Source: Candidatus Bathyarchaeota archaeon
GTDB taxonomy: Archaea > Thermoproteota > Bathyarchaeia > TCS64
Assembly (NCBI GenBank): GCA_020346605.1
Contig: CP070784.1
Coordinates: 2,008,105-2,072,104, forward strand
DNA: 64,000 nucleotides
Direction of reading: 5' to 3'
Below the pieces are notes generated by a model. It was not told where the DNA came from. It worked only from the letters and a program-made list of their open reading frames with translations, and did not search any database. Positions 44,590 to 53,896 of the stretch are shown here, in pieces (the stretch's first letter is position 1; every line of letters starts with the position of its first letter). A program made the translations under genes and the position numbers.

Positions 44590-46197
44590 TCAGTGTCTAT
44601 GGTGTCTCATTTGCGTAACCACGAACGTAGCCAGCGCCGCCCCAAGTGCGATCGATATGCCCGGGAAACCGGGTATCCCTGTCTGCCCCGAGGGTGATGA
44701 TGGGGATTCGAGCTGGCTCACGGACCTCTGCTGAATGGTTACTGAGCAGGTGTCGACATCAGCTTGATATCCTTCCTTCTCGACGCCCACAAGGACGCTG
44801 TATGTCCCAGCCTCGATGCCTTCAGTGCTCAGGGTCACCTCGTAGCTCCCTGACCCTTGGGACGGGAGGGCGAAGTCCTCACCGTCGAAGGAGACTGTGG
44901 CCTCGGCGTCACTAACAGGTCTGCCGTCCTGGTCGGTGACGCCTACGGTCACCGTCAGAGGTGTGCCCTCGGTGAGCGTCGAGGCGGAGAGAGTGGTCGA
45001 GACGGCCAGGCTGAGGACCACGGGGGCGCGGCTGTTCAGCGCGAAGCTGGTGTCTGTGAGGGTGATGCTGATGGAGGTGGTGATGGAGTACTCGTTGTTG
45101 TTGTAATAGAAGTCCGAGGAGCTGACGATACCCGTGCCTAGGTGGACGGTCATGTCCTTCCAGCTGGTCTCGATCGGGGTGAATCCCGAGTAGCTGCGGG
45201 TTTTCCCGTGGACCGTGACGTACGCGTCGCCTACCGTGACCTCCCTCTCGGGGAGGTTGTCGATGCTGGCGTAGACGAGGTCGGCAAGGGGCACACCGTC
45301 GAGCTCCAGGGGGAAGAGGACGGCGCCGGCGAATGAGCCGTCCTCGGAGGCGATGGAGACGCCGTCCTCGTCGGCTGTGTGCCACGTGTAGCTGTCGTAG
45401 GGGACGTTGATCTGGACCCGGGTCTCGTCCTCGGTGGAGACGTACTGGATCGTGCTCCTCTGCTTAACCAGGATGTGGCCGCCTTGGACGTCCGCGATCA
45501 CCCAGGTACTGTCCCATTCCCCTTGGCTCGACGACGTCCCGGTGCCCATGGAGCCCGTAAACGTGGAGTCGTCGACGTGCCATGAGATAGTGTCCCCGGG
45601 CTCGACGCCCCACGTGGCGTATACCGCGGCGGCCGGGGGATCGGGGGGGCTGGTCCCCAGGGTGTCGAGGATGTGGGAGATGAACTGGGGGAGGAGCTCG
45701 TCCATGTAGCCGTAGGCGTCCATGTCGTCCAAGGGCGAGTAGAAGAACAGGAAGAGGAACCTCCCGTGGACGAACACTCGCTCCCGGGGGACGAACCTCT
45801 GGTAGAGGGGGCCGTTATTCCCCTGGTAGCCCAGGCCGCTGATGTACTCCTGGTCCACGGCCTGGAGCCGGTACTCGTCCTCGGCGGCCTCGGGGGTGGC
45901 GAACTCGATCACCTCCTGCCAGACGATGGCTTCGCCCCTCTGGTAGCTGGCGAGGATGATTGTCACCGGTTGCTCTCCCAGGATGAAGTCGTTGGGGACT
46001 CCCCCGATGTCCTCCATGAAGGCCACATACTCTGGGTACGTGTACAGGTCAGCCAGCAGGGTGTAGCCCTCGGCCTCCATGAGCATATCCAGAGCCGTCA
46101 CCTCGGCCGAAGCTGACGGAGCGGGGGCGAGGAATGGTCCAACACACAGCCCTACCAGCAGAACGATCAGGATGACGCTCTTCTTGTCACCGTTCAT
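44590..46197 (-). CDS. secreted protein with PGF-CTERM archaeosortase sorting signal
   Basis: 535 aa from ATG 46197. Signal peptide MNGDKKSVILIVLLVGLCVGPFLAPAPSASA, an Ig-like C-terminal domain, then SPSSPSGQTGIPGFPGISIALGAALATFVVTQMRHHRH (PGF + TM + basic tail). Confidence 0.75.
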   Translation of the reverse strand: MNGDKKSVILIVLLVGLCVGPFLAPAPSASAEVTALDMLMEAEGYTLLADLYTYPEYVAFMEDIGGVPNDFILGEQPVTIILASYQRGEAIVWQEVIEFATPEAAEDEYRLQAVDQEYISGLGYQGNNGPLYQRFVPRERVFVHGRFLFLFFYSPLDDMDAYGYMDELLPQFISHILDTLGTSPPDPPAAAVYATWGVEPGDTISWHVDDSTFTGSMGTGTSSSQGEWDSTWVIADVQGGHILVKQRSTIQYVSTEDETRVQINVPYDSYTWHTADEDGVSIASEDGSFAGAVLFPLELDGVPLADLVYASIDNLPEREVTVGDAYVTVHGKTRSYSGFTPIETSWKDMTVHLGTGIVSSSDFYYNNNEYSITTSISITLTDTSFALNSRAPVVLSLAVSTTLSASTLTEGTPLTVTVGVTDQDGRPVSDAEATVSFDGEDFALPSQGSGSYEVTLSTEGIEAGTYSVLVGVEKEGYQADVDTCSVTIQQRSVSQLESPSSPSGQTGIPGFPGISIALGAALATFVVTQMRHHRH

Positions 46198-46362
46198 ACG
46201 CAATGTTACACCTCCTTTCGATTTTAAGGAGATGGTGGGGATACAGTCGGCGAATATATCAGATTTATGGAGTCTGATTCTCCTGACCGAGTTGGAAGTC
46301 GACGAGGCGCCCCCTGTCTCCAACTCTTATCCCCGGTCGAGGGTAGTCTTCCCTGATGGAAT

Positions 46363-49830: not shown

Positions 49831-50172
49831 CTACTGGGTGGCGACCTTCGGCTGGTACTCCTGGAAGATGTCACCGTAGGCCCTGCAGAAGTACTCGCAG
49901 GCCTCCATGGCCCCCGTTCTCCCCCTCTCCGTGAGGCGGTAGATCTTCCTTCTGCCCTCCTGTCGGGCCTCCACGAGCCCGTTCTTCTCCAGCTCGCCGA
50001 GCGCCGGATAGAGCGTGCCGGGGTTCGGCCTAGTCCCCCGCCGCGCCTCGAGCTCGTCGGCGATCTCCTGTCCGTACATGTCTCTCTTGGTGAGCAGCCA
50101 GAGGATGGTGAAGGATAGGAGGCCCCTCATGTCGCAGCAGTTTGGGATGGGGTTCTCGCAGCAGTCTTCCAT
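49831..50172 (-). CDS. PadR-family transcriptional regulator with Cys-rich N-terminal extension
   Basis: 113 aa. MEDCCENPIPNCCDMRG precedes the PadR winged helix (FTILWLLTKRDMYGQEIADEL...GTLYPALGELEKNGLV). Confidence 0.8.
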   Translation of the reverse strand: MEDCCENPIPNCCDMRGLLSFTILWLLTKRDMYGQEIADELEARRGTRPNPGTLYPALGELEKNGLVEARQEGRRKIYRLTERGRTGAMEACEYFCRAYGDIFQEYQPKVATQ

Positions 50173-50190
50173 TGCGTATTATTGGACGAC

Positions 50191-50224
50191 CGATACATTT
50201 AAATTATTGCATGGAATAGTATCG
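50191..50224. promoter_or_regulatory. divergent promoter with inverted repeat around a palindromic TATA
   Basis: CGATAC (50191-96) and GTATCG (50219-24) enclose ATTTAAAT (50197-204). The TATA centre is about 27 nt from the PadR ATG (50172). Further CGATA/GATACG copies lie at 50231-48. Confidence 0.45.
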
Positions 50225-50250
50225 GATGTCCGATAATAGTGTGATACGAC

Positions 50251-51024
50251 ATGGTTGAGAACAGCGAGAAGATCAAGGAGCACGTGAGGGAGACGTACTC
50301 CCAGGTCGCCCAGAGGGCGCAGGCATCCTGCGGATGCGGCTGCGGGACGGCGTCGACGGCGAGCTGCTGCGGCCCCGTCTCCAAGGACGCCTACGTCCAG
50401 GGGATAGGCTACTCTCTGGAAGATATCAAGGAGCTCCCGGAGAGCGCCGTTGGCGCCGCCGCGGGATGCGGAAACCCCACGGCCATCGCCGGGCTGAAGG
50501 AGGGCGAGGTGGTCCTGGACCTGGGCTCAGGGGGAGGGATAGATGTCTTCCTCTCCGCGAAGAAGGTGGGCCCCAAGGGCAAGGCTATCGGCGTTGACAT
50601 GACCGACGAGATGCTGAACCTTGCACGCAAGAACGCCGAGGAGCTGGGCTTCGAGAACGTCGAGTTCAGGAAGGGCGACATCGAGGACCTCCCTGTGGAG
50701 GACGAGTCCGTCGACGTCATCATCAGCAACTGCGTCATCAACCTGGCCCCCGACAAGGATAAGGTCTTTAGGGAGGCCTACAGGGTGCTCAGGCCCGGCG
50801 GAAGGATAACCGTCTCCGACATAGTCACCGACGGCCCGCTGCCCCAGGAGATCAAGGACAACCCCGACGCCTGGGCGGCATGTGTCTCGGGAGCCCTCGA
50901 CAAGGAGGAGTACCTGCAGAAGATCAGGGACGCCGGCTTCCAGGATGTCAAGGTGCTGGACTGCAGGGGATTCGGCCTCGTCTACAGCGCCGAGGTAGAG
51001 GCATTCAAGGGAGCGCACGGCTGA
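50251..51024 (+). CDS. arsM: arsenite S-adenosylmethionine methyltransferase
   Basis: 257 aa. N-terminal Cys cluster CGCGCG...SCCGP, GCGNPTA, SAM motif [23 protein letters not shown] and AWAACVSGA correspond to the conserved ArsM cysteines and motifs. Confidence 0.9.
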
Positions 51025-51028
51025 AACG

Positions 51029-51292
51029 ATGTCGGAGTGCTGCGCCCAGACTGAATACCAGACCTGGAAGCGAGATTCCGAGCAGACGCTAATTGAGCTC
51101 CCCCCGGCGCTCGGGTTCGGCGAAGACATCACTCTGGCCAATGGAAACGTCGTGCTGCTCAGCGACGAGACTATGAAGTACCTGGAAGCGCTGAACCGAG
51201 TGATCCTCATTGAGGAGGACAGGGTGCTCAGCCTCGGTGAGACCGTCGCAAGGGTGCTCGACTTCTATAGAAGGTTCGTAAGGTTCGCCTGA
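51029..51292 (+). CDS. hypothetical protein (N-terminal vicinal Cys pair)
   Basis: 87 aa starting MSECC. The ATG is 4 nt after the arsM stop. No family recognised. Confidence 0.5.
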   Translation: MSECCAQTEYQTWKRDSEQTLIELPPALGFGEDITLANGNVVLLSDETMKYLEALNRVILIEEDRVLSLGETVARVLDFYRRFVRFA

Positions 51293-51307
51293 GCCTCCCA
51301 TTTTCTT

Positions 51308-51324
51308 GAATTAATTATTAATTC
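51308..51324. promoter_or_regulatory. 17-nt perfect palindrome overlapping the presumptive TATA region
   Basis: GAATTAATTATTAATTC, 29-45 nt upstream of ATG 51353. Confidence 0.5.
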
Positions 51325-51352
51325 ATAATCCCCCTATGAGATATGGGTACAA

Positions 51353-52963
51353 ATGGCTCACAGGCTCTTCTCTGACGTGCCACAGATCATCTCCATCGTG
51401 AGGGCCTCCCTCGACGGCGCCGTGAACCTGAAGAAAGAAGTGAGAGAACACCTCGAGATAGGCGATGGTTCGGTAGTACACATGAACATCGGCGATGAGG
51501 TGACCCTATCAAAGGAGGGGGGCGAGGGCGTCGAAGTGCCCATCAGGGGCAGGGGAATCGTCCTGCCGATTGAAGCCATCGCAAGGCTGGGCTTGGAAAA
51601 AGGGGGCCTCGTCGGCTTCGTCCAGAGGCCGGGGGCCATCGCGGTCAAGAGGGTGGAGCTCGAGGAGGAGGGTGCAGATTTCTCATCGCTCTTCGACCTG
51701 GAGACGCCGACTGTGATCACCAGGAGGGTGGAGACCAACCCTCTTCCTGAGGAGCTGCTCCCAGCGCTCATCGAGAGGAACAGGGATCTGAAGCTGAACC
51801 ACGAACTGGAAGGATTCCTCAAGGGGAGGCAGACCCTAGAGGCGCTTAAGACCAGGGAGATCCTCGGAGTGCCCGAGAACTCGGACACCGAGCTCAGGGA
51901 GGCGCTCACCGCGCAGAGGCTGGACAAACAGGAGAGCGACGGATCCTGGGGAGGGGGCGTCACCGCTACGGCGAGGATGCTCAGGGAGATGGCCGAGCTG
52001 GACCTTAACAGGGACGACCCCGGCGTGAAGAGCGCCGCCGCGTGGCTGCTGTCGAGGCCCGAGTCGCCCCACAACCCGGGGATGTTCTTCCTGAGGGACG
52101 AGCTGGTGGGGGAGCAGGTGGAACTGGTCGAGAGGCGGACGAAGCAGAAGACCGGGAGTCGACCCAGGTTCAGGAAGCTATTAGCCTCGGAGAACAAGCT
52201 CGTGGCCCAGGGCGACCCAATGATCAAGAAGGCGTGCGGCCCCCGCATCATGTGGCCCAACTCAATCGTCGTCGAGGCCTTGCTCAAGGCGGGATACGAG
52301 GACGATGAGCGCGTCCAAGCGAACCTGGGGATGCTGTCCCACGGCCACTGGTGCGAGTGTGGGTACCAGCACGGCAGGAGCGGATGGAGAGAGAGTAGGG
52401 GGACTCTCACCGACGAGGAGATCACAAACCTGGAGCGCAAGTTTATCAACCAGTACAGGTTCGGCCACCCTGGGCTGAGCAGCCTGGAGGAGCTGGCTGA
52501 GAAGGACCTGGCCCACAAGGTGGGGCCGAAGCTCCCAAGGGTCTCTGAGACGGAGGAGGACGGAGTCCGGAGGTACCCCCTGTACCGGGAGGGGCAAGTC
52601 CAGGGCTGCGAGCTCCTGACCGCGAGGGCACTCCACCTGACGAAGGACGAGAGGCTCAGACGCCTCGTCGAGGCATACCTGTGGCGGCTCGCCGCGGTCC
52701 AGAGGGAGGACGGCAGGTTCCACTACATCGGCAGGAGCGGCCGCTACGTGAACAACGTCTTCCACGAGCAGCAGCCGGGGATGTTGGAGTTCTTCGCTAG
52801 GTTCGACCACCCCGTCTCCCACGTCGTCATCCACCGTTCCCTCCCCTGGATCGTGGAGAACCAGAACGAGGACGGCTCGTGGGGGCAGGAGCCGCACAGG
52901 GACGTCGCCACCCTGGCAGTCGTGAGGGCGCTGGACAGGATAGGGTTCTTCGGGGAGCCCTGA
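51353..52963 (+). CDS. fusion protein: two AbrB/SpoVT-like domains + prenyltransferase/terpene-cyclase-like repeat domain
   Basis: 536 aa. The N-terminal segments AVNLKKEVREHLEIGDGSVVHMN and GIVLPIEAIARLGLEKGGLVGFV look AbrB-like. The C-terminal part carries QESDGSWGGG, REDGRFHY and NEDGSWGQE repeats. Confidence 0.6.
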   Translation: MAHRLFSDVPQIISIVRASLDGAVNLKKEVREHLEIGDGSVVHMNIGDEVTLSKEGGEGVEVPIRGRGIVLPIEAIARLGLEKGGLVGFVQRPGAIAVKRVELEEEGADFSSLFDLETPTVITRRVETNPLPEELLPALIERNRDLKLNHELEGFLKGRQTLEALKTREILGVPENSDTELREALTAQRLDKQESDGSWGGGVTATARMLREMAELDLNRDDPGVKSAAAWLLSRPESPHNPGMFFLRDELVGEQVELVERRTKQKTGSRPRFRKLLASENKLVAQGDPMIKKACGPRIMWPNSIVVEALLKAGYEDDERVQANLGMLSHGHWCECGYQHGRSGWRESRGTLTDEEITNLERKFINQYRFGHPGLSSLEELAEKDLAHKVGPKLPRVSETEEDGVRRYPLYREGQVQGCELLTARALHLTKDERLRRLVEAYLWRLAAVQREDGRFHYIGRSGRYVNNVFHEQQPGMLEFFARFDHPVSHVVIHRSLPWIVENQNEDGSWGQEPHRDVATLAVVRALDRIGFFGEP

Positions 52964-53011: not shown

Positions 53012-53896
53012 TTGGAGTACGGCGCTCAATCCGAGTACGGCCGCCTCAGGAAGGTGCTGATGCACTGGCCCACGGAGGAGATGAGGAGGATCACACCGGG
53101 GAACAGGGGCTCGTACCTCTTCAGGGACGTGGTCTACTGGAAGGAGTTTCAAAGGGAACACGACGTCTTCACGGACGCGCTGAGGGGGGAGGGGGTCGTT
53201 GTGCTCCTGATGGAGGACCTCCTCCAAGAGGGGAACTCCAGGACCGCCGCGAACCTGCCCAACCTCGTCTACACGAGGGACGTATGCACAGTGAATAGTC
53301 AGAGGGCCTACACGCCGAGGGTGACCTACCAGGCCAGGTACGCCGAGCCCCTCCTCGTCGAGAGGGTGATGAAGGAGCTCGGGATCTCCATCGCCCACTG
53401 TGTCACACCTCTAGGGGTCGTCGAGGGGGGAGACTTCGTCTAGCTCAACGAGGGGACCGTGATGATGGGCTTCGACACCCGGAGCAACGAGGTCGGTGTC
53501 GAGGAGTTCGTCGCCGTCATACTGCCCTCCTTCCGAGTCCATCTGGACGGGGCGCTGATGATGGCCACCGACCTCGCCCTGTTCCACAAGGCCTCCCTCG
53601 GCCTCTTCCCGGCATATGTGTATGACCGGAATGGGGGGGTGGAGATCGCCTACTTGGAAGAGTACCTGAAGGGAAAGGGGGTGGAGCTCGTCTACGCAAA
53701 CGACACCGAGATACGGATGTTCGGCACCAACATCATCGGCCTCGGCGGGGGCAAGTGCGTCTCATACGAGTGGAACGAGATGATCATGGGAATCTTGGAG
53801 GAGCGGGGCTTCGACGTCATCGGCATACCGGGGAGCCAGCTCAGCATCGGGGGCGGCGGACCCCACTGCAGGACCTGCCCCATACTCCGGGACTGA
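53012..53896 (+). pseudogene. amidinotransferase-fold (arginine deiminase/DDAH-like) gene interrupted by in-frame TAG at 53441-53443
   Basis: The two ORFs 53012..53443 and 53459..53896 are in the same frame. Reading through gives VVEGGDFV[TAG]LNEGTVMMGFDTRSN ... GGGGPHCRTCPILRD, colinear with 38890..39759. Confidence 0.7.

Follow-up and report, generated by a model that had tools for sequence, protein, structure and literature searches.

Swapped-hairpin beta-barrels formed by a single chain are very few, and the known ones are MraZ (UPF0040; 1N0E, 9QLG) and PhS018 from Pyrococcus horikoshii (2GLW), both of the "cradle-like" type. In the MraZ fold, a single chain forms what is a dimer in the SpoVT-AbrB domain, and MraZ binds DNA via the basic residues of its DXXXR motif, the contacts being K13, R15, and R86 (PMC12957436). 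This motif carries the DNA-contacting arginine and is D11...R15 in AbrB (PMC12957436). In SpoVT, an AbrB domain is followed by a larger GAF sensor. Here we describe a protein family that, by its predicted fold, adds one more single-chain barrel and in which the barrel is permanently attached to a large helical domain, an alpha/alpha toroid. Both folds are already well known, and their fusion is real and undescribed in the literature searched.

The gene lies in the window, the 64,000-nucleotide stretch of a Candidatus Bathyarchaeota genome that was analysed. The ORF is present exactly where the original prediction had placed it.

51353..52963, plus strand: complete ORF of 536 aa plus TGA stop, starting with ATG (ORF list, translation check, full-length homologs)

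Full-length homologs share 34-60% identity with the product, referred to below as the window protein. On reading the sequence, no signal peptide or membrane segment is apparent, and the product would be a stand-alone cytoplasmic protein. Its two modules are an N-terminal one (residues 10-132) and a C-terminal alpha/alpha toroid (residues 133-536). The AF2 model of the full-length protein has a pLDDT of 93.9 and a pTM of 0.92, and that of the N-module a pLDDT of 92.5. The peptides on which the prediction was based were all located in the translation: SLDG...EVTL at residues 19-52 (slightly different from the earlier numbering of about 14-55), GRGI...KRV at 66-101, QESDGSWGGG at 193-202, HGHWCECGYQHG at 330-341, REDGRFHY at 451-458, and NEDGSWGQE at 505-513.

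Two tandem AbrB/SpoVT-like domains had been proposed for the N-terminus. The N-module divides into three segments.

51380..51520, plus strand: AbrB-like repeat 1, beta-beta-alpha-beta-beta, residues 10-56 (DSSP of AF2 models, column statistics)
51521..51676, plus strand: AbrB-like repeat 2, beta-beta-alpha-beta-beta, residues 57-108 (DSSP, Pfam, SpoVT alignment)
51677..51748, plus strand: extra beta-hairpin and ETNPxP linker, residues 109-132 (conservation, AF2 strands)

In a Foldseek search with residues 1-132, the top PDB folds are MraZ (prob 1.00, TM 0.50, 113 columns) and PhS018 (prob 0.99). In the models, the N-module is thus a swapped-hairpin barrel of two beta-beta-alpha-beta-beta units, which would make it a single-chain, pseudo-dimeric barrel of the AbrB/MazE/MraZ type with an extra beta-hairpin. 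Sequence similarity between the two halves is not detectable by BLASTP, so that "tandem" is to be understood in terms of structure only. Repeat 1 gives NCBIfam AbrB/MazE hints below threshold. Repeat 2 carries a G-x-R-I-x-L-P motif that aligns with G-R-V-V-I-P-x-E-I-R-x-x-L in the N-domain of SpoVT, and the N-module profile matches this domain (2ro5) with E=0.078. The Pfam model MazE_antitoxin (PF04014) covers residues 69-100 of the window protein (E=0.069), but its score of 13.6 bits fails the gathering cutoff of 24.7 bits. Among 56 family members, the same model reaches E<=0.01 in four and E<=5 in ten, with a best E of 1.6e-7. The proposed AbrB-like fold therefore stands on structural grounds, with sequence matches below threshold in the window protein, and the relationship to the SpoVT/AbrB domain is supported at the family level, not from the window sequence alone. 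The hairpin, with strands at residues 112-117 and 121-128 in the AF2 models, joins the barrel to the toroid together with the linker. Its D115 and R124 are invariant, also in a sister family described below.

As in MraZ and PhS018, one chain provides both barrel halves. However, MraZ is a small, stand-alone, ring-forming protein encoded in the dcw cluster, whereas the present gene lies outside a dcw cluster and its barrel continues into the extra hairpin and a toroid of 400 aa. The Pfam model for MraZ matches neither the window protein nor any of the 56 members, and the likeness to MraZ is limited to the fold. SpoVT may be alike in its logic, with an AbrB-type module followed by a larger C-terminal sensory domain. 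It differs in that its barrel, like that of AbrB, is made by two chains and its sensor is a GAF domain instead of an alpha/alpha toroid. The sub-cutoff Pfam score and the lack of R15-equivalent arginines also set the window protein apart from SpoVT and AbrB.

The remainder of the protein had been assigned to prenyltransferase/squalene-cyclase-like toroid repeats, and it contains the following features.

51749..52960, plus strand: single alpha/alpha toroid of the terpenoid cyclase/prenyltransferase fold class, residues 133-536 (Pfam, PDB profile, Foldseek, DSSP)
51929..51949, plus strand: QW-like motif 1, QESDGSW, residues 193-199 (alignment, translation check)
52235..52261, plus strand: CGPRIMWPN motif with invariant Cys295, residues 295-303 (conservation, AF2 model)
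52349..52375, plus strand: WCECGYQHG motif, residues 333-341 (conservation, translation check)
52607..52609, plus strand: Cys419 of a Q-G-C-E motif (conservation, AF2 model)
52700..52720, plus strand: QW-like motif 2, QREDGRF, residues 450-456 (column statistics, translation check)
52862..52882, plus strand: QW-like motif 3, QNEDGSW, residues 504-510 (alignment, translation check)

This assignment is borne out by Pfam, PDB profiles, Foldseek, and a helical DSSP pattern. SQHop_cyclase_C matches the window protein with 28.9 bits (cutoff 26.1) and 55 of the 56 members at E<=0.01. When the family profile is compared with the PDB, squalene-hopene cyclase (SHC; E=1.3e-10) and ent-copalyl diphosphate synthase (E=1.8e-7) are matched, and class II cyclases are the only significant hits (E=1.3e-10 to 2.8e-6). 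They also appear in the Foldseek search with the full model, together with thioester-containing proteins of the alpha-2-macroglobulin (A2M)/complement group, all being distant.

SHC, ent-CPP synthase (5BP8), Rv3377c (6VPT), MstE (6SBB), and drimenyl-PP synthase (7XR7) share the toroid and the QW-type motifs with the window protein, which has three QxxxGx[WF] motifs, beginning at residues 193, 450, and 504. In motif 1, Q193 and S198 are invariant and G197 and W199 nearly so. Motif 3, with invariant Q504, G508, S509, and W510, is the segment behind the SHC sequence matches. However, class II cyclases possess a DxDD acid and a pair of beta and gamma toroids, whereas here there is one toroid, and a regular-expression search for DxDD or D.D[DE] in the window protein was empty. 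The consensus of the 56 members lacks it as well. The full-length NCBIfam models are also far from satisfied (hopene_cyclase, 26 vs 431 bits; squalene_cyclas, 24 vs 323).

The most conspicuous feature of the toroid is its cysteines. The window protein has four in all (C295, C334, C336, and C419), and all are conserved. The CGPRIMWPN motif immediately precedes the helix 300-312. Cys334 is invariant, also in the sister family, and Cys336 comes close to invariance in the core family, with most members of the sister family keeping it. Cys419, invariant in both families, begins the helix 418-427. Many arginines of the toroid are invariant too, conservation reaches 85% or more in 29% of its columns, and its conserved motifs sit in loops directly before helices. 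Class II cyclases are not known to have such an invariant Cys cluster. The four cysteines argue for metal or thiol chemistry instead of an isoprenoid ligand.

A conserved Cys-Gly at the start of a helix is also found in the thioester-containing domain (TED) of alpha-2-macroglobulin and complement C3/C5, which ranks first in Foldseek when the full model is searched (E=5e-5 to 1e-3, prob 1.00) and is likewise a single alpha/alpha toroid flanked by beta domains. The motif is CGEQ in TED and CGPR here (C295-G-P-R in the core family, C-E/G-x-R/K in the sister family). Since there is no Gln at position +3 of Cys295, a thioester is impossible. TED further differs in its low TM-scores of about 0.3 and in that the window protein is cytoplasmic, with no apparent signal peptide. 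The Pfam model TED_complement matches one of the 56 members (E=0.085).

At least 115 representative clusters share the fusion as a fixed architecture. The taxonomic survey places it in Bathyarchaeia and Asgard archaea (Heimdall- and Promethearchaeota) as well as in Chloroflexota, Poribacteria, and Lentisphaerae. A sister family with 20-24% identity has the same barrel-toroid layout, and a more distant relative is fused to TerB_N. Full-length homologs in many phyla and the sister family with its identical layout show that the fusion is not an artefact of assembly or gene calling. The members are named "hypothetical" or, automatically, "PrlF antitoxin" in their sources. No description of the architecture was found in these names or in the literature searched, in agreement with the initial impression that it was not a recognised one, and literature searches for the fusion and for cyclase-like proteins of these archaea returned nothing relevant. 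The product is conserved among sediment archaea and bacteria and uncharacterised, and the functions considered below are hypotheses.

Whether the barrel could bind DNA depends on its residues. Repeat 1 has a conserved signature, LKKxVRxxL, whose basic residues K27, K28, and R31 are kept in 75%, 96%, and 88% of members, respectively. K28 and R31 are at AbrB DNA-contact positions, R31 being the equivalent of R23 of AbrB. The equivalent of AbrB R15 is Lys or Arg in 64% (repeat 1) and 68% (repeat 2) of the 56 members, and in repeat 2 of the sister family it is Arg or Lys in 9 of 14. In the window protein, these positions are Ala23 and Gly68. The Asp of DXXXR is out of register in both repeats, so that the MraZ motif is not kept in register in this family. 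The AbrB DNA-contact arginines are only partly kept. The pI of the barrel has a family median of 8.4, but it is 5.2 (acidic) in the window protein. The most conserved residues of the barrel (P10, Q11, E49, R92, K99, D115, E117, and R124) are not at classical DNA-contact positions and may form the interface with the toroid instead. Mean pairwise identity is 50.5% in the toroid vs 40.7% in the barrel. In typical transcription factors, this order is reversed.

We tentatively favour a regulator in which a Cys/metal-centred toroid controls the AbrB-like barrel, although we stop short of calling it probable. The toroid, one of the squalene-cyclase fold class, has lost, or never had, the DxDD acid, and its pre-helix loops would hold a Cys3-4 centre ringed by invariant Arg, Trp, and Gln. 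The ligand of this centre would be a metal, as Zn or an Fe-S cluster, or else a small molecule, either anionic or reactive towards thiols. The occupancy or chemistry of the site would be transmitted via the rigid hairpin and linker to the barrel, which would contact DNA with K27, K28, and R31 at the start of the repeat-1 helix and with the Arg of repeat 2, in the manner of AbrB, SpoVT, and MraZ. By passing a signal from the Cys centre to a DNA-contacting barrel, the protein would be a one-component regulator and perhaps a "trigger enzyme", for which PutA and BirA offer a comparison. A one-component sensor had already been suggested in the original prediction and is a reasonable hypothesis, not a finding. 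What the analysis establishes is the two folds, their fixed fusion, the conserved cysteines, and the missing DxDD; binding of a metal or ligand, binding of DNA, and coupling of the modules are inferred. The isoprenoid or other hydrophobic ligand proposed with it has nothing pointing to it; isoprenoid genes are not conserved near the homologs, and DxDD is absent.

The regulator reading is favoured by the best folds of the N-module, MraZ and PhS018, since the MraZ fold binds DNA (PMC12957436). It is also favoured by the retention of K28, R31, and the R15 equivalents, by the basic median pI, and by the Pfam MazE_antitoxin matches of some members. The high share of conserved columns, the pre-helix motifs, and the protein's only cysteines, all conserved, speak for the toroid as a binding or catalytic module. 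No neighbouring gene is conserved across phyla, as judged by neighbour clustering at 25 and then 83 loci and by annotating 95 neighbours at 10 other loci in bulk with Pfam. The gene is thus autonomous, as expected of a self-contained one-component protein. Further in favour, the gene in this window is preceded by an AT-rich region of its own that contains a unique palindrome.

51307..51325, no strand assigned: perfect 19-bp AT-rich palindrome TGAATTAAT-T-ATTAATTCA (sequence; unique in the window)

The palindrome stands 27 bp 5' of the ATG, occurs once within the window (0.01 expected), and could serve as a promoter or operator. Homolog loci do not share it, which makes it an uncertain part of the system. 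In fact, no upstream operator motif is shared among the homologs in 42 non-redundant upstream regions, and this counts against a regulator. So do the higher conservation of the toroid, the off-register Asp of DXXXR together with Ala23, Gly68, and the acidic barrel of the window protein, and the mismatch between the best-conserved barrel residues and the DNA-contact positions. The pTM of the full model indicates a rigid integral domain, not a tethered DNA-binding domain. Moreover, separate regulators adjoin the gene in several loci (AraC in L002, ArsR-X in L029, and ECF sigma-X in L040; X is an unannotated family discussed below). We know of no prokaryotic transcription factor with an alpha/alpha-toroid sensor domain, which also speaks against the regulator.

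Nearly as likely as the regulator, and likewise not probable in itself, is an enzyme or a high-specificity binding protein whose barrel no longer binds DNA. The Cys3-4 centre, probably a Zn-thiolate, would carry out thiol or alkyl-transfer chemistry or bind an anionic substrate via invariant Arg, and the barrel would be a fixed structural lid or a docking domain for a peptide or protein substrate. Zn-bearing alpha/alpha toroids are known in LanC/LanCL, the protein prenyltransferase beta subunit, and GH127. A conserved Cys cluster at helix N-termini may be a feature shared with these Zn-thiolate enzymes, and the "W-C" of W333-C334 recalls the "WCxG" motif of LanC. The ligand set differs, being a putative Cys3-4 here vs Cys2His, Asp-Cys-His, or Cys3Glu there. 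No member matches the Pfam models for LanC (PF05147) or GH127 at E<=5 (0 of 56), and Prenyltrans (PF00432) matches three of the 56 weakly (best E=0.096); these Pfam results weigh against this reading. In its favour are the better conservation of the toroid, with its dense invariant Cys, Arg, Trp, and Gln in pre-helix loops, a layout frozen across the sister family down to D115 and R124, the rigid model, and the lack of a conserved operator. The same is true of the DXXXR motif, which is degenerate in the family and absent from the window protein with its acidic barrel. However, all characterised swapped-hairpin barrels of the AbrB/MazE/MraZ type known to us are DNA-binding, MraZ among them (PMC12957436), K28 and R31 are highly conserved, and pathway genes around the gene are not.

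Family X also bears on the enzyme reading. Searches of Pfam, NCBIfam, and the PDB gave it no identity apart from a weak hint of BtrH_N. Of 44 dereplicated loci, 7 have it within 6 kb of the gene, and three of these have it immediately upstream on the gene's strand. Some family-X proteins are fusions with an ECF sigma factor or an ArsR HTH, and regulation may therefore be supplied separately. Against this, family-X loci often lack the gene, as do both of those examined. Family X is absent from the window. We treat the link as facultative.

A role in nucleic-acid repair or modification is improbable. In it, the barrel would hold DNA or RNA, and a toroid face rich in Arg, with its Cys residues possibly forming an Fe-S site, would act on a lesion or modification by recognising or processing it. 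The protein would then be a repair or modification factor of a new kind. This role was suggested by the neighbours. MutS is divergent upstream in Heimdall/Promethearchaeota loci, with MutL beside it in some, and is also found in one Bathyarchaeia locus. Nine loci, in two different arrangements, have Fpg/Nei within 1-3 kb, RuvC-RuvA-UvrB is upstream in one Dehalococcoidia genome, and on a Hydrogenedentota contig the gene of the sister family is followed by AlkZ-like and TfoX_N genes. The TerB_N fusion of the distant relative and the many invariant arginines of the toroid would also fit. However, these neighbours cluster by lineage, as inherited synteny does, and their frequency is near chance, about 0.25-0.3 per +-6 kb locus as a rough estimate, not a computed control. 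The only repair genes among the 95 neighbours from the 10 other loci were one RecA and the known MutS of L018, there is no repair gene near the target in the window, and Pfam, NCBIfam, PDB profile, and Foldseek searches show no likeness to a known nuclease, glycosylase, or helicase. The DNA-repair neighbour theme is not significant.

A class II terpene cyclase of the SHC type or an antitoxin of the PrlF/MazE type, to which a SQHop_cyclase_C score just above cutoff and the JGI label of several members as the antitoxin component of YhaV-PrlF could point, can in practice be regarded as refuted, since both the catalytic motif and the toxin partner are missing: DxDD or D.D[DE] is nowhere in the protein, the single toroid has about 400 aa vs about 630 aa in SHC, the hopene_cyclase score is far below its cutoff, the SHC matches are limited to QW repeats, no toxin family adjoins the gene in the window or in about 80 homolog loci, and 536 aa with a rigidly attached toroid is unlike an antitoxin.

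For annotation, SQHop_cyclase_C matches in these genomes should not be taken for hopanoid or terpene cyclases, and family members labelled "PrlF antitoxin" are misannotated. Should the barrel bind DNA, the toroid would represent a new type of sensor domain. Otherwise, the family would add a new branch with a Cys/metal centre to the terpenoid-cyclase/prenyltransferase fold, one that occurs in subsurface microbes that are still poorly understood. It is possible, but rather unlikely, that the protein is the founding member of a new class of prokaryotic regulators or DNA-directed enzymes in which a Cys/metal toroid of the squalene-cyclase fold is the sensory or catalytic module of a single-chain AbrB/MraZ-type DNA-binding barrel. 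It would then, to our knowledge, represent the first transcription factor with an alpha/alpha-toroid sensor and the third natural single-chain swapped-hairpin barrel.

Some features of the surroundings were considered separately. The neighbours in the window are PadR, ArsM, and an arginine-deiminase-like gene. A link to ArsM was rejected, as ArsM adjoins the gene only in this genome; the methyltransferases near the homologs in L006 and L017 are generic and lack the cysteines of ArsM. An in-frame TAG in the deiminase-like gene raised the possibility of pyrrolysine, which was rejected because TAG is a common stop codon here. A defence system was likewise dismissed, with no match in PADLOC. Two arrangements recur within lineages: MutL-MutS, the target gene, and PF00144 in Heimdallarchaeota, and a Bathyarchaeia-type order of the target gene, a 202-aa ORF, an epimerase, and Fpg.

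The gene encoding the target protein of 536 amino acids lies where the original prediction placed it, at 51353-52963 on the plus strand, running from ATG to TGA. No competing long ORF in the ORF list suggests a rival gene over this interval, and the ORFs antisense to it are low-complexity shadows. The peptides quoted in the prediction were all found in the translation, at the following positions.

Residues 19-52: first AbrB-like stretch
Residues 66-101: second AbrB-like stretch
Residues 193-202: QESDGSWGGG
Residues 330-341: HGHWCECGYQHG
Residues 451-458: REDGRFHY
Residues 505-513: NEDGSWGQE

The fusion of a DNA-binding-type N-terminal module with a C-terminal alpha/alpha toroid, as originally proposed, is real and conserved across a family, and the literature searched contains no description of it. 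What is new is the domain architecture, together with a new branch of the toroid fold; both kinds of component were already known. At least 120 full-length clusters are related to the target (34-60% identity, 95-100% of length). When 1.84 billion representatives were searched exhaustively, 115 matches fell below 1e-30. Since nearly all of these are full-length or contig-truncated fragments, barrel and toroid travel together across the family. Source names of the members are all "hypothetical protein" or the automatic "PrlF antitoxin". The hosts, with taxonomy taken from named sources and genome titles, are listed below.

Archaea: Bathyarchaeia; Heimdallarchaeota; Promethearchaeota
Bacteria: Dehalococcoidia; Anaerolineae; Chloroflexia; Poribacteria; Lentisphaerae

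A sister family with 20-24% identity, which includes one Hydrogenedentota member, retains both barrel repeats, the hairpin and the toroid. D115 and R124 of the hairpin and C295, C334 and C419 of the toroid are invariant in this family, and C336 is found in most of its members. Two further proteins match in part in the representative search. P0245 (905 aa) combines a TerB_N domain with a match to the target profile at positions 65-332 (barrel repeat 2 to mid-toroid), and in P0251 (1376 aa), a BlaR1/M56 peptidase, the tail matches the QW repeats only.

Sequence matches of the target's own barrel are faint. Pfam MazE_antitoxin gives only E=0.069, and NCBIfam hints of AbrB and MazE fall below threshold; some homologs pass MazE_antitoxin (best E=1.6e-7). 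When a profile built from residues 1-132 is used, repeat 2 matches the SpoVT N-domain at E=0.078, and the register is the canonical one (G-R-V-V-I-P-K-E-I-R-R-T-L versus N-R-I-T-L-P-E-E-V-L-E-K-L). Comparison of the two barrel halves with each other detected no sequence similarity. Modelled separately by AlphaFold2 (pLDDT 92.5), residues 1-132 form two beta-beta-alpha-beta-beta units and then an additional beta-hairpin. The best PDB fold matches are MraZ (1N0E, 9QLG; prob 1.00, TM 0.50, 113 columns) and PhS018 (2GLW; prob 0.99). The LEC2 B3 DNA-binding domain scores lower (prob 0.41-0.54), and entries for the p97/CDC48A N-domain lie close to noise level (prob <0.1). To our knowledge, PhS018 is the other known single-chain swapped-hairpin barrel besides MraZ. 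MraZ is described in PMC12957436 as the one-chain equivalent of the dimeric SpoVT-AbrB domain. The predicted structure thus bears out the "tandem AbrB-like domains" of the prediction; more precisely, the module is modelled as one pseudo-dimeric barrel in a single chain.

The toroid assignment is also sound, with no close solved relative in the PDB by family profile or Foldseek. Pfam SQHop_cyclase_C matches residues 446-513 of the target (28.9 bits versus a gathering score of 26.1) and 55 of the 56 aligned family members at E<=0.01; SQHop_cyclase_N is below threshold. A PDB search with the family profile found squalene-hopene cyclase (SHC, E=1.3e-10), ent-copalyl diphosphate synthase (E=1.8e-7) and Rv3377c (E=2.8e-6), in alignments confined to QW-type repeats. 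The full-length AlphaFold2 model, for which the 56 members were aligned, has high confidence (mean pLDDT 93.9, pTM 0.92) and is helical from residue 132 to the C-terminus. Its Foldseek matches in the PDB are alpha-2-macroglobulin/complement thioester-domain proteins (E=5e-5 to 1e-3) and the class II terpene cyclases SHC, MstE and drimenyl diphosphate synthase (E=3e-4 to 1e-2), all with query-normalised TM-scores <=0.35.

A class II cyclase identity was rejected because a motif search of the target found neither DxDD nor anything similar, scores fall far short of those for full-length cyclase models (26 versus 431 bits) and there is only one toroid. Among the 56 members, LanC and GH127 gave no match, and TED and Prenyltrans no meaningful match, even at E<=5. 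The hallmark of this toroid is a putative cysteine centre. The target contains exactly four cysteines, which are the four conserved in the family, and the AlphaFold2 model places them at, or immediately ahead of, the N-terminal ends of helices 300-312, 335-338 and 418-427. Other invariant blocks (QxxDGSW, NPGMFF, CGPRIMWPN, WCECGYQHG, QGCE and QNxDGSWG) are also placed at or just before helix N-termini. In alpha/alpha toroids, the loops leading into the inner helices share one face, which leads us to infer one conserved pocket that holds a centre of three to four cysteines. The folds named in the prediction stand, and its idea of an isoprenoid sensor is unsupported.

Our tentative preference is for a regulator, perhaps a trigger enzyme, whose AbrB-like barrel would be controlled by the state of a metal or ligand at the toroid Cys centre. 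In favour of DNA binding, all characterised barrels of this type bind DNA, as far as we know. K28 is conserved in 96% of members and R31, equivalent to AbrB R23, in 88%; a basic residue occupies the R15-equivalent position in 64% of members for repeat 1 and in 68% for repeat 2, and the family median pI of the barrel is 8.4. Against DNA binding, the Asp of DXXXR is out of register, the R15-equivalents of the target are Ala23 and Gly68, its barrel is acidic (pI 5.2), and the best-conserved barrel residues differ from the classical contact positions. Also against it, the toroid is better conserved than the barrel (mean pairwise identity 50.5% versus 40.7%; columns conserved at >=85%, 29% versus 15%), a whole-chain pTM of 0.92 points to a rigid assembly in the model, and no operator-like motif is common to the upstream regions of 42 non-redundant homologs. 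The next reading, an enzyme with a Cys/metal centre whose barrel is structural or substrate-binding, is nearly as likely as the regulator. An enzyme directed at nucleic acid is improbable, and the identities carried by automatic labels, terpene cyclase or PrlF antitoxin, are effectively excluded.

The gene start is preceded by a perfect palindrome that is unique within the 64-kb window (0.01 expected). It matches the position expected of the archaeal TATA region and is not conserved upstream of homologs. This and other features around the target are as follows.

49831-51292: divergent PadR, arsenite methyltransferase and 87-aa ORF, upstream of the target
51307-51325: 19-bp AT-rich palindrome TGAATTAAT-T-ATTAATTCA, 27 bp upstream of the target ATG
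53012-53896, plus strand: interrupted arginine-deiminase/amidinotransferase-like gene, downstream of the target

The arsenite methyltransferase matches NF008823 (337 bits versus a cutoff of 263). The PadR facing it carries two N-terminal Cys-Cys pairs (MEDCCENPIPNCCDMRG), and the 87-aa ORF starts with MSECC and has no family match. Together they resemble a module for arsenic methylation, with a Cys-rich PadR as its unusual component. The arrangement, including the adjacency of the target to PadR and the methyltransferase, is confined to this genome. The arginine-deiminase-like gene is one reading frame with a single in-frame TAG at 53441-53443 (...GGDFV*LNEGTVMMGF...). Recoding was rejected since TAG terminates 18 of the window's 51 long ORFs; either this is a pseudogene or the sequence contains an error.

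Across 83 homolog loci, no neighbour is conserved between phyla. The best recurrent one is an unannotated family, here family X. Of the 44 dereplicated loci whose flanks could be used, seven have family X within 6 kb of the homolog, and in three of the seven it sits immediately upstream in the same orientation. Its copies, and those of a second neighbour, are listed by locus.

L046:5049-5957; L040:188-1807; L029:4165-5634; L044/L045 (several): family X
L013:6553-7599; L054:4130-5176; L056:7606-8652; L048:2140-2530: 348-aa Cys-/Trp-rich protein

With 671 clusters, family X is larger than the target family. Its motifs are G-x-SG-x-AF, CPSGP/CPCAPTC and GYD, and a weak BtrH_N hint is its only resemblance to a known family. 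One lineage (L040) has it fused to a complete ECF sigma factor, another (L029) to an ArsR-type HTH. Five paralogs surround the homolog in the Poribacteria-type locus L045, and four are on the shorter contig L044. Because family X is absent from the window and the target gene is missing from both family X loci examined, the link is facultative. In one Anaerolineae-type lineage, the 348-aa protein, for which no family match was found, is encoded 7-46 bp 3' of the homolog and in the same orientation.

Repair genes also recur near homologs (MutS/MutL, Fpg, RuvC/RuvA/UvrB, AlkZ). They are lineage-clustered and near chance expectation, by a rough estimate rather than a computed control; among 95 neighbours at ten other loci, one RecA and the already known MutS of L018 were the sole repair genes. 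In six Heimdall-/Promethearchaeota loci (L003, L011, L016, L023, L024, L060), gene order is conserved: MutS is divergent and upstream of the homolog, with MutL beside it in all except L024. Next comes a PF00144 beta-lactamase-fold gene, which follows the homolog immediately in four of these loci and after about 2 kb in L003 and L011. In another group, of Bathyarchaeia type, the order is target homolog, 202-aa ORF, epimerase and Fpg.

PADLOC gave no match, and neither tRNA genes nor Rfam families at gathering score were found in window positions 1-64000. A 577-aa secreted protein (44590-46323, minus strand) has the C-terminus ...PGFPGISIALGAALATFVVTQMRHHRH, which resembles a PGF-CTERM archaeosortase signal and so hints at an archaeal host. 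This ending has no NCBIfam match.
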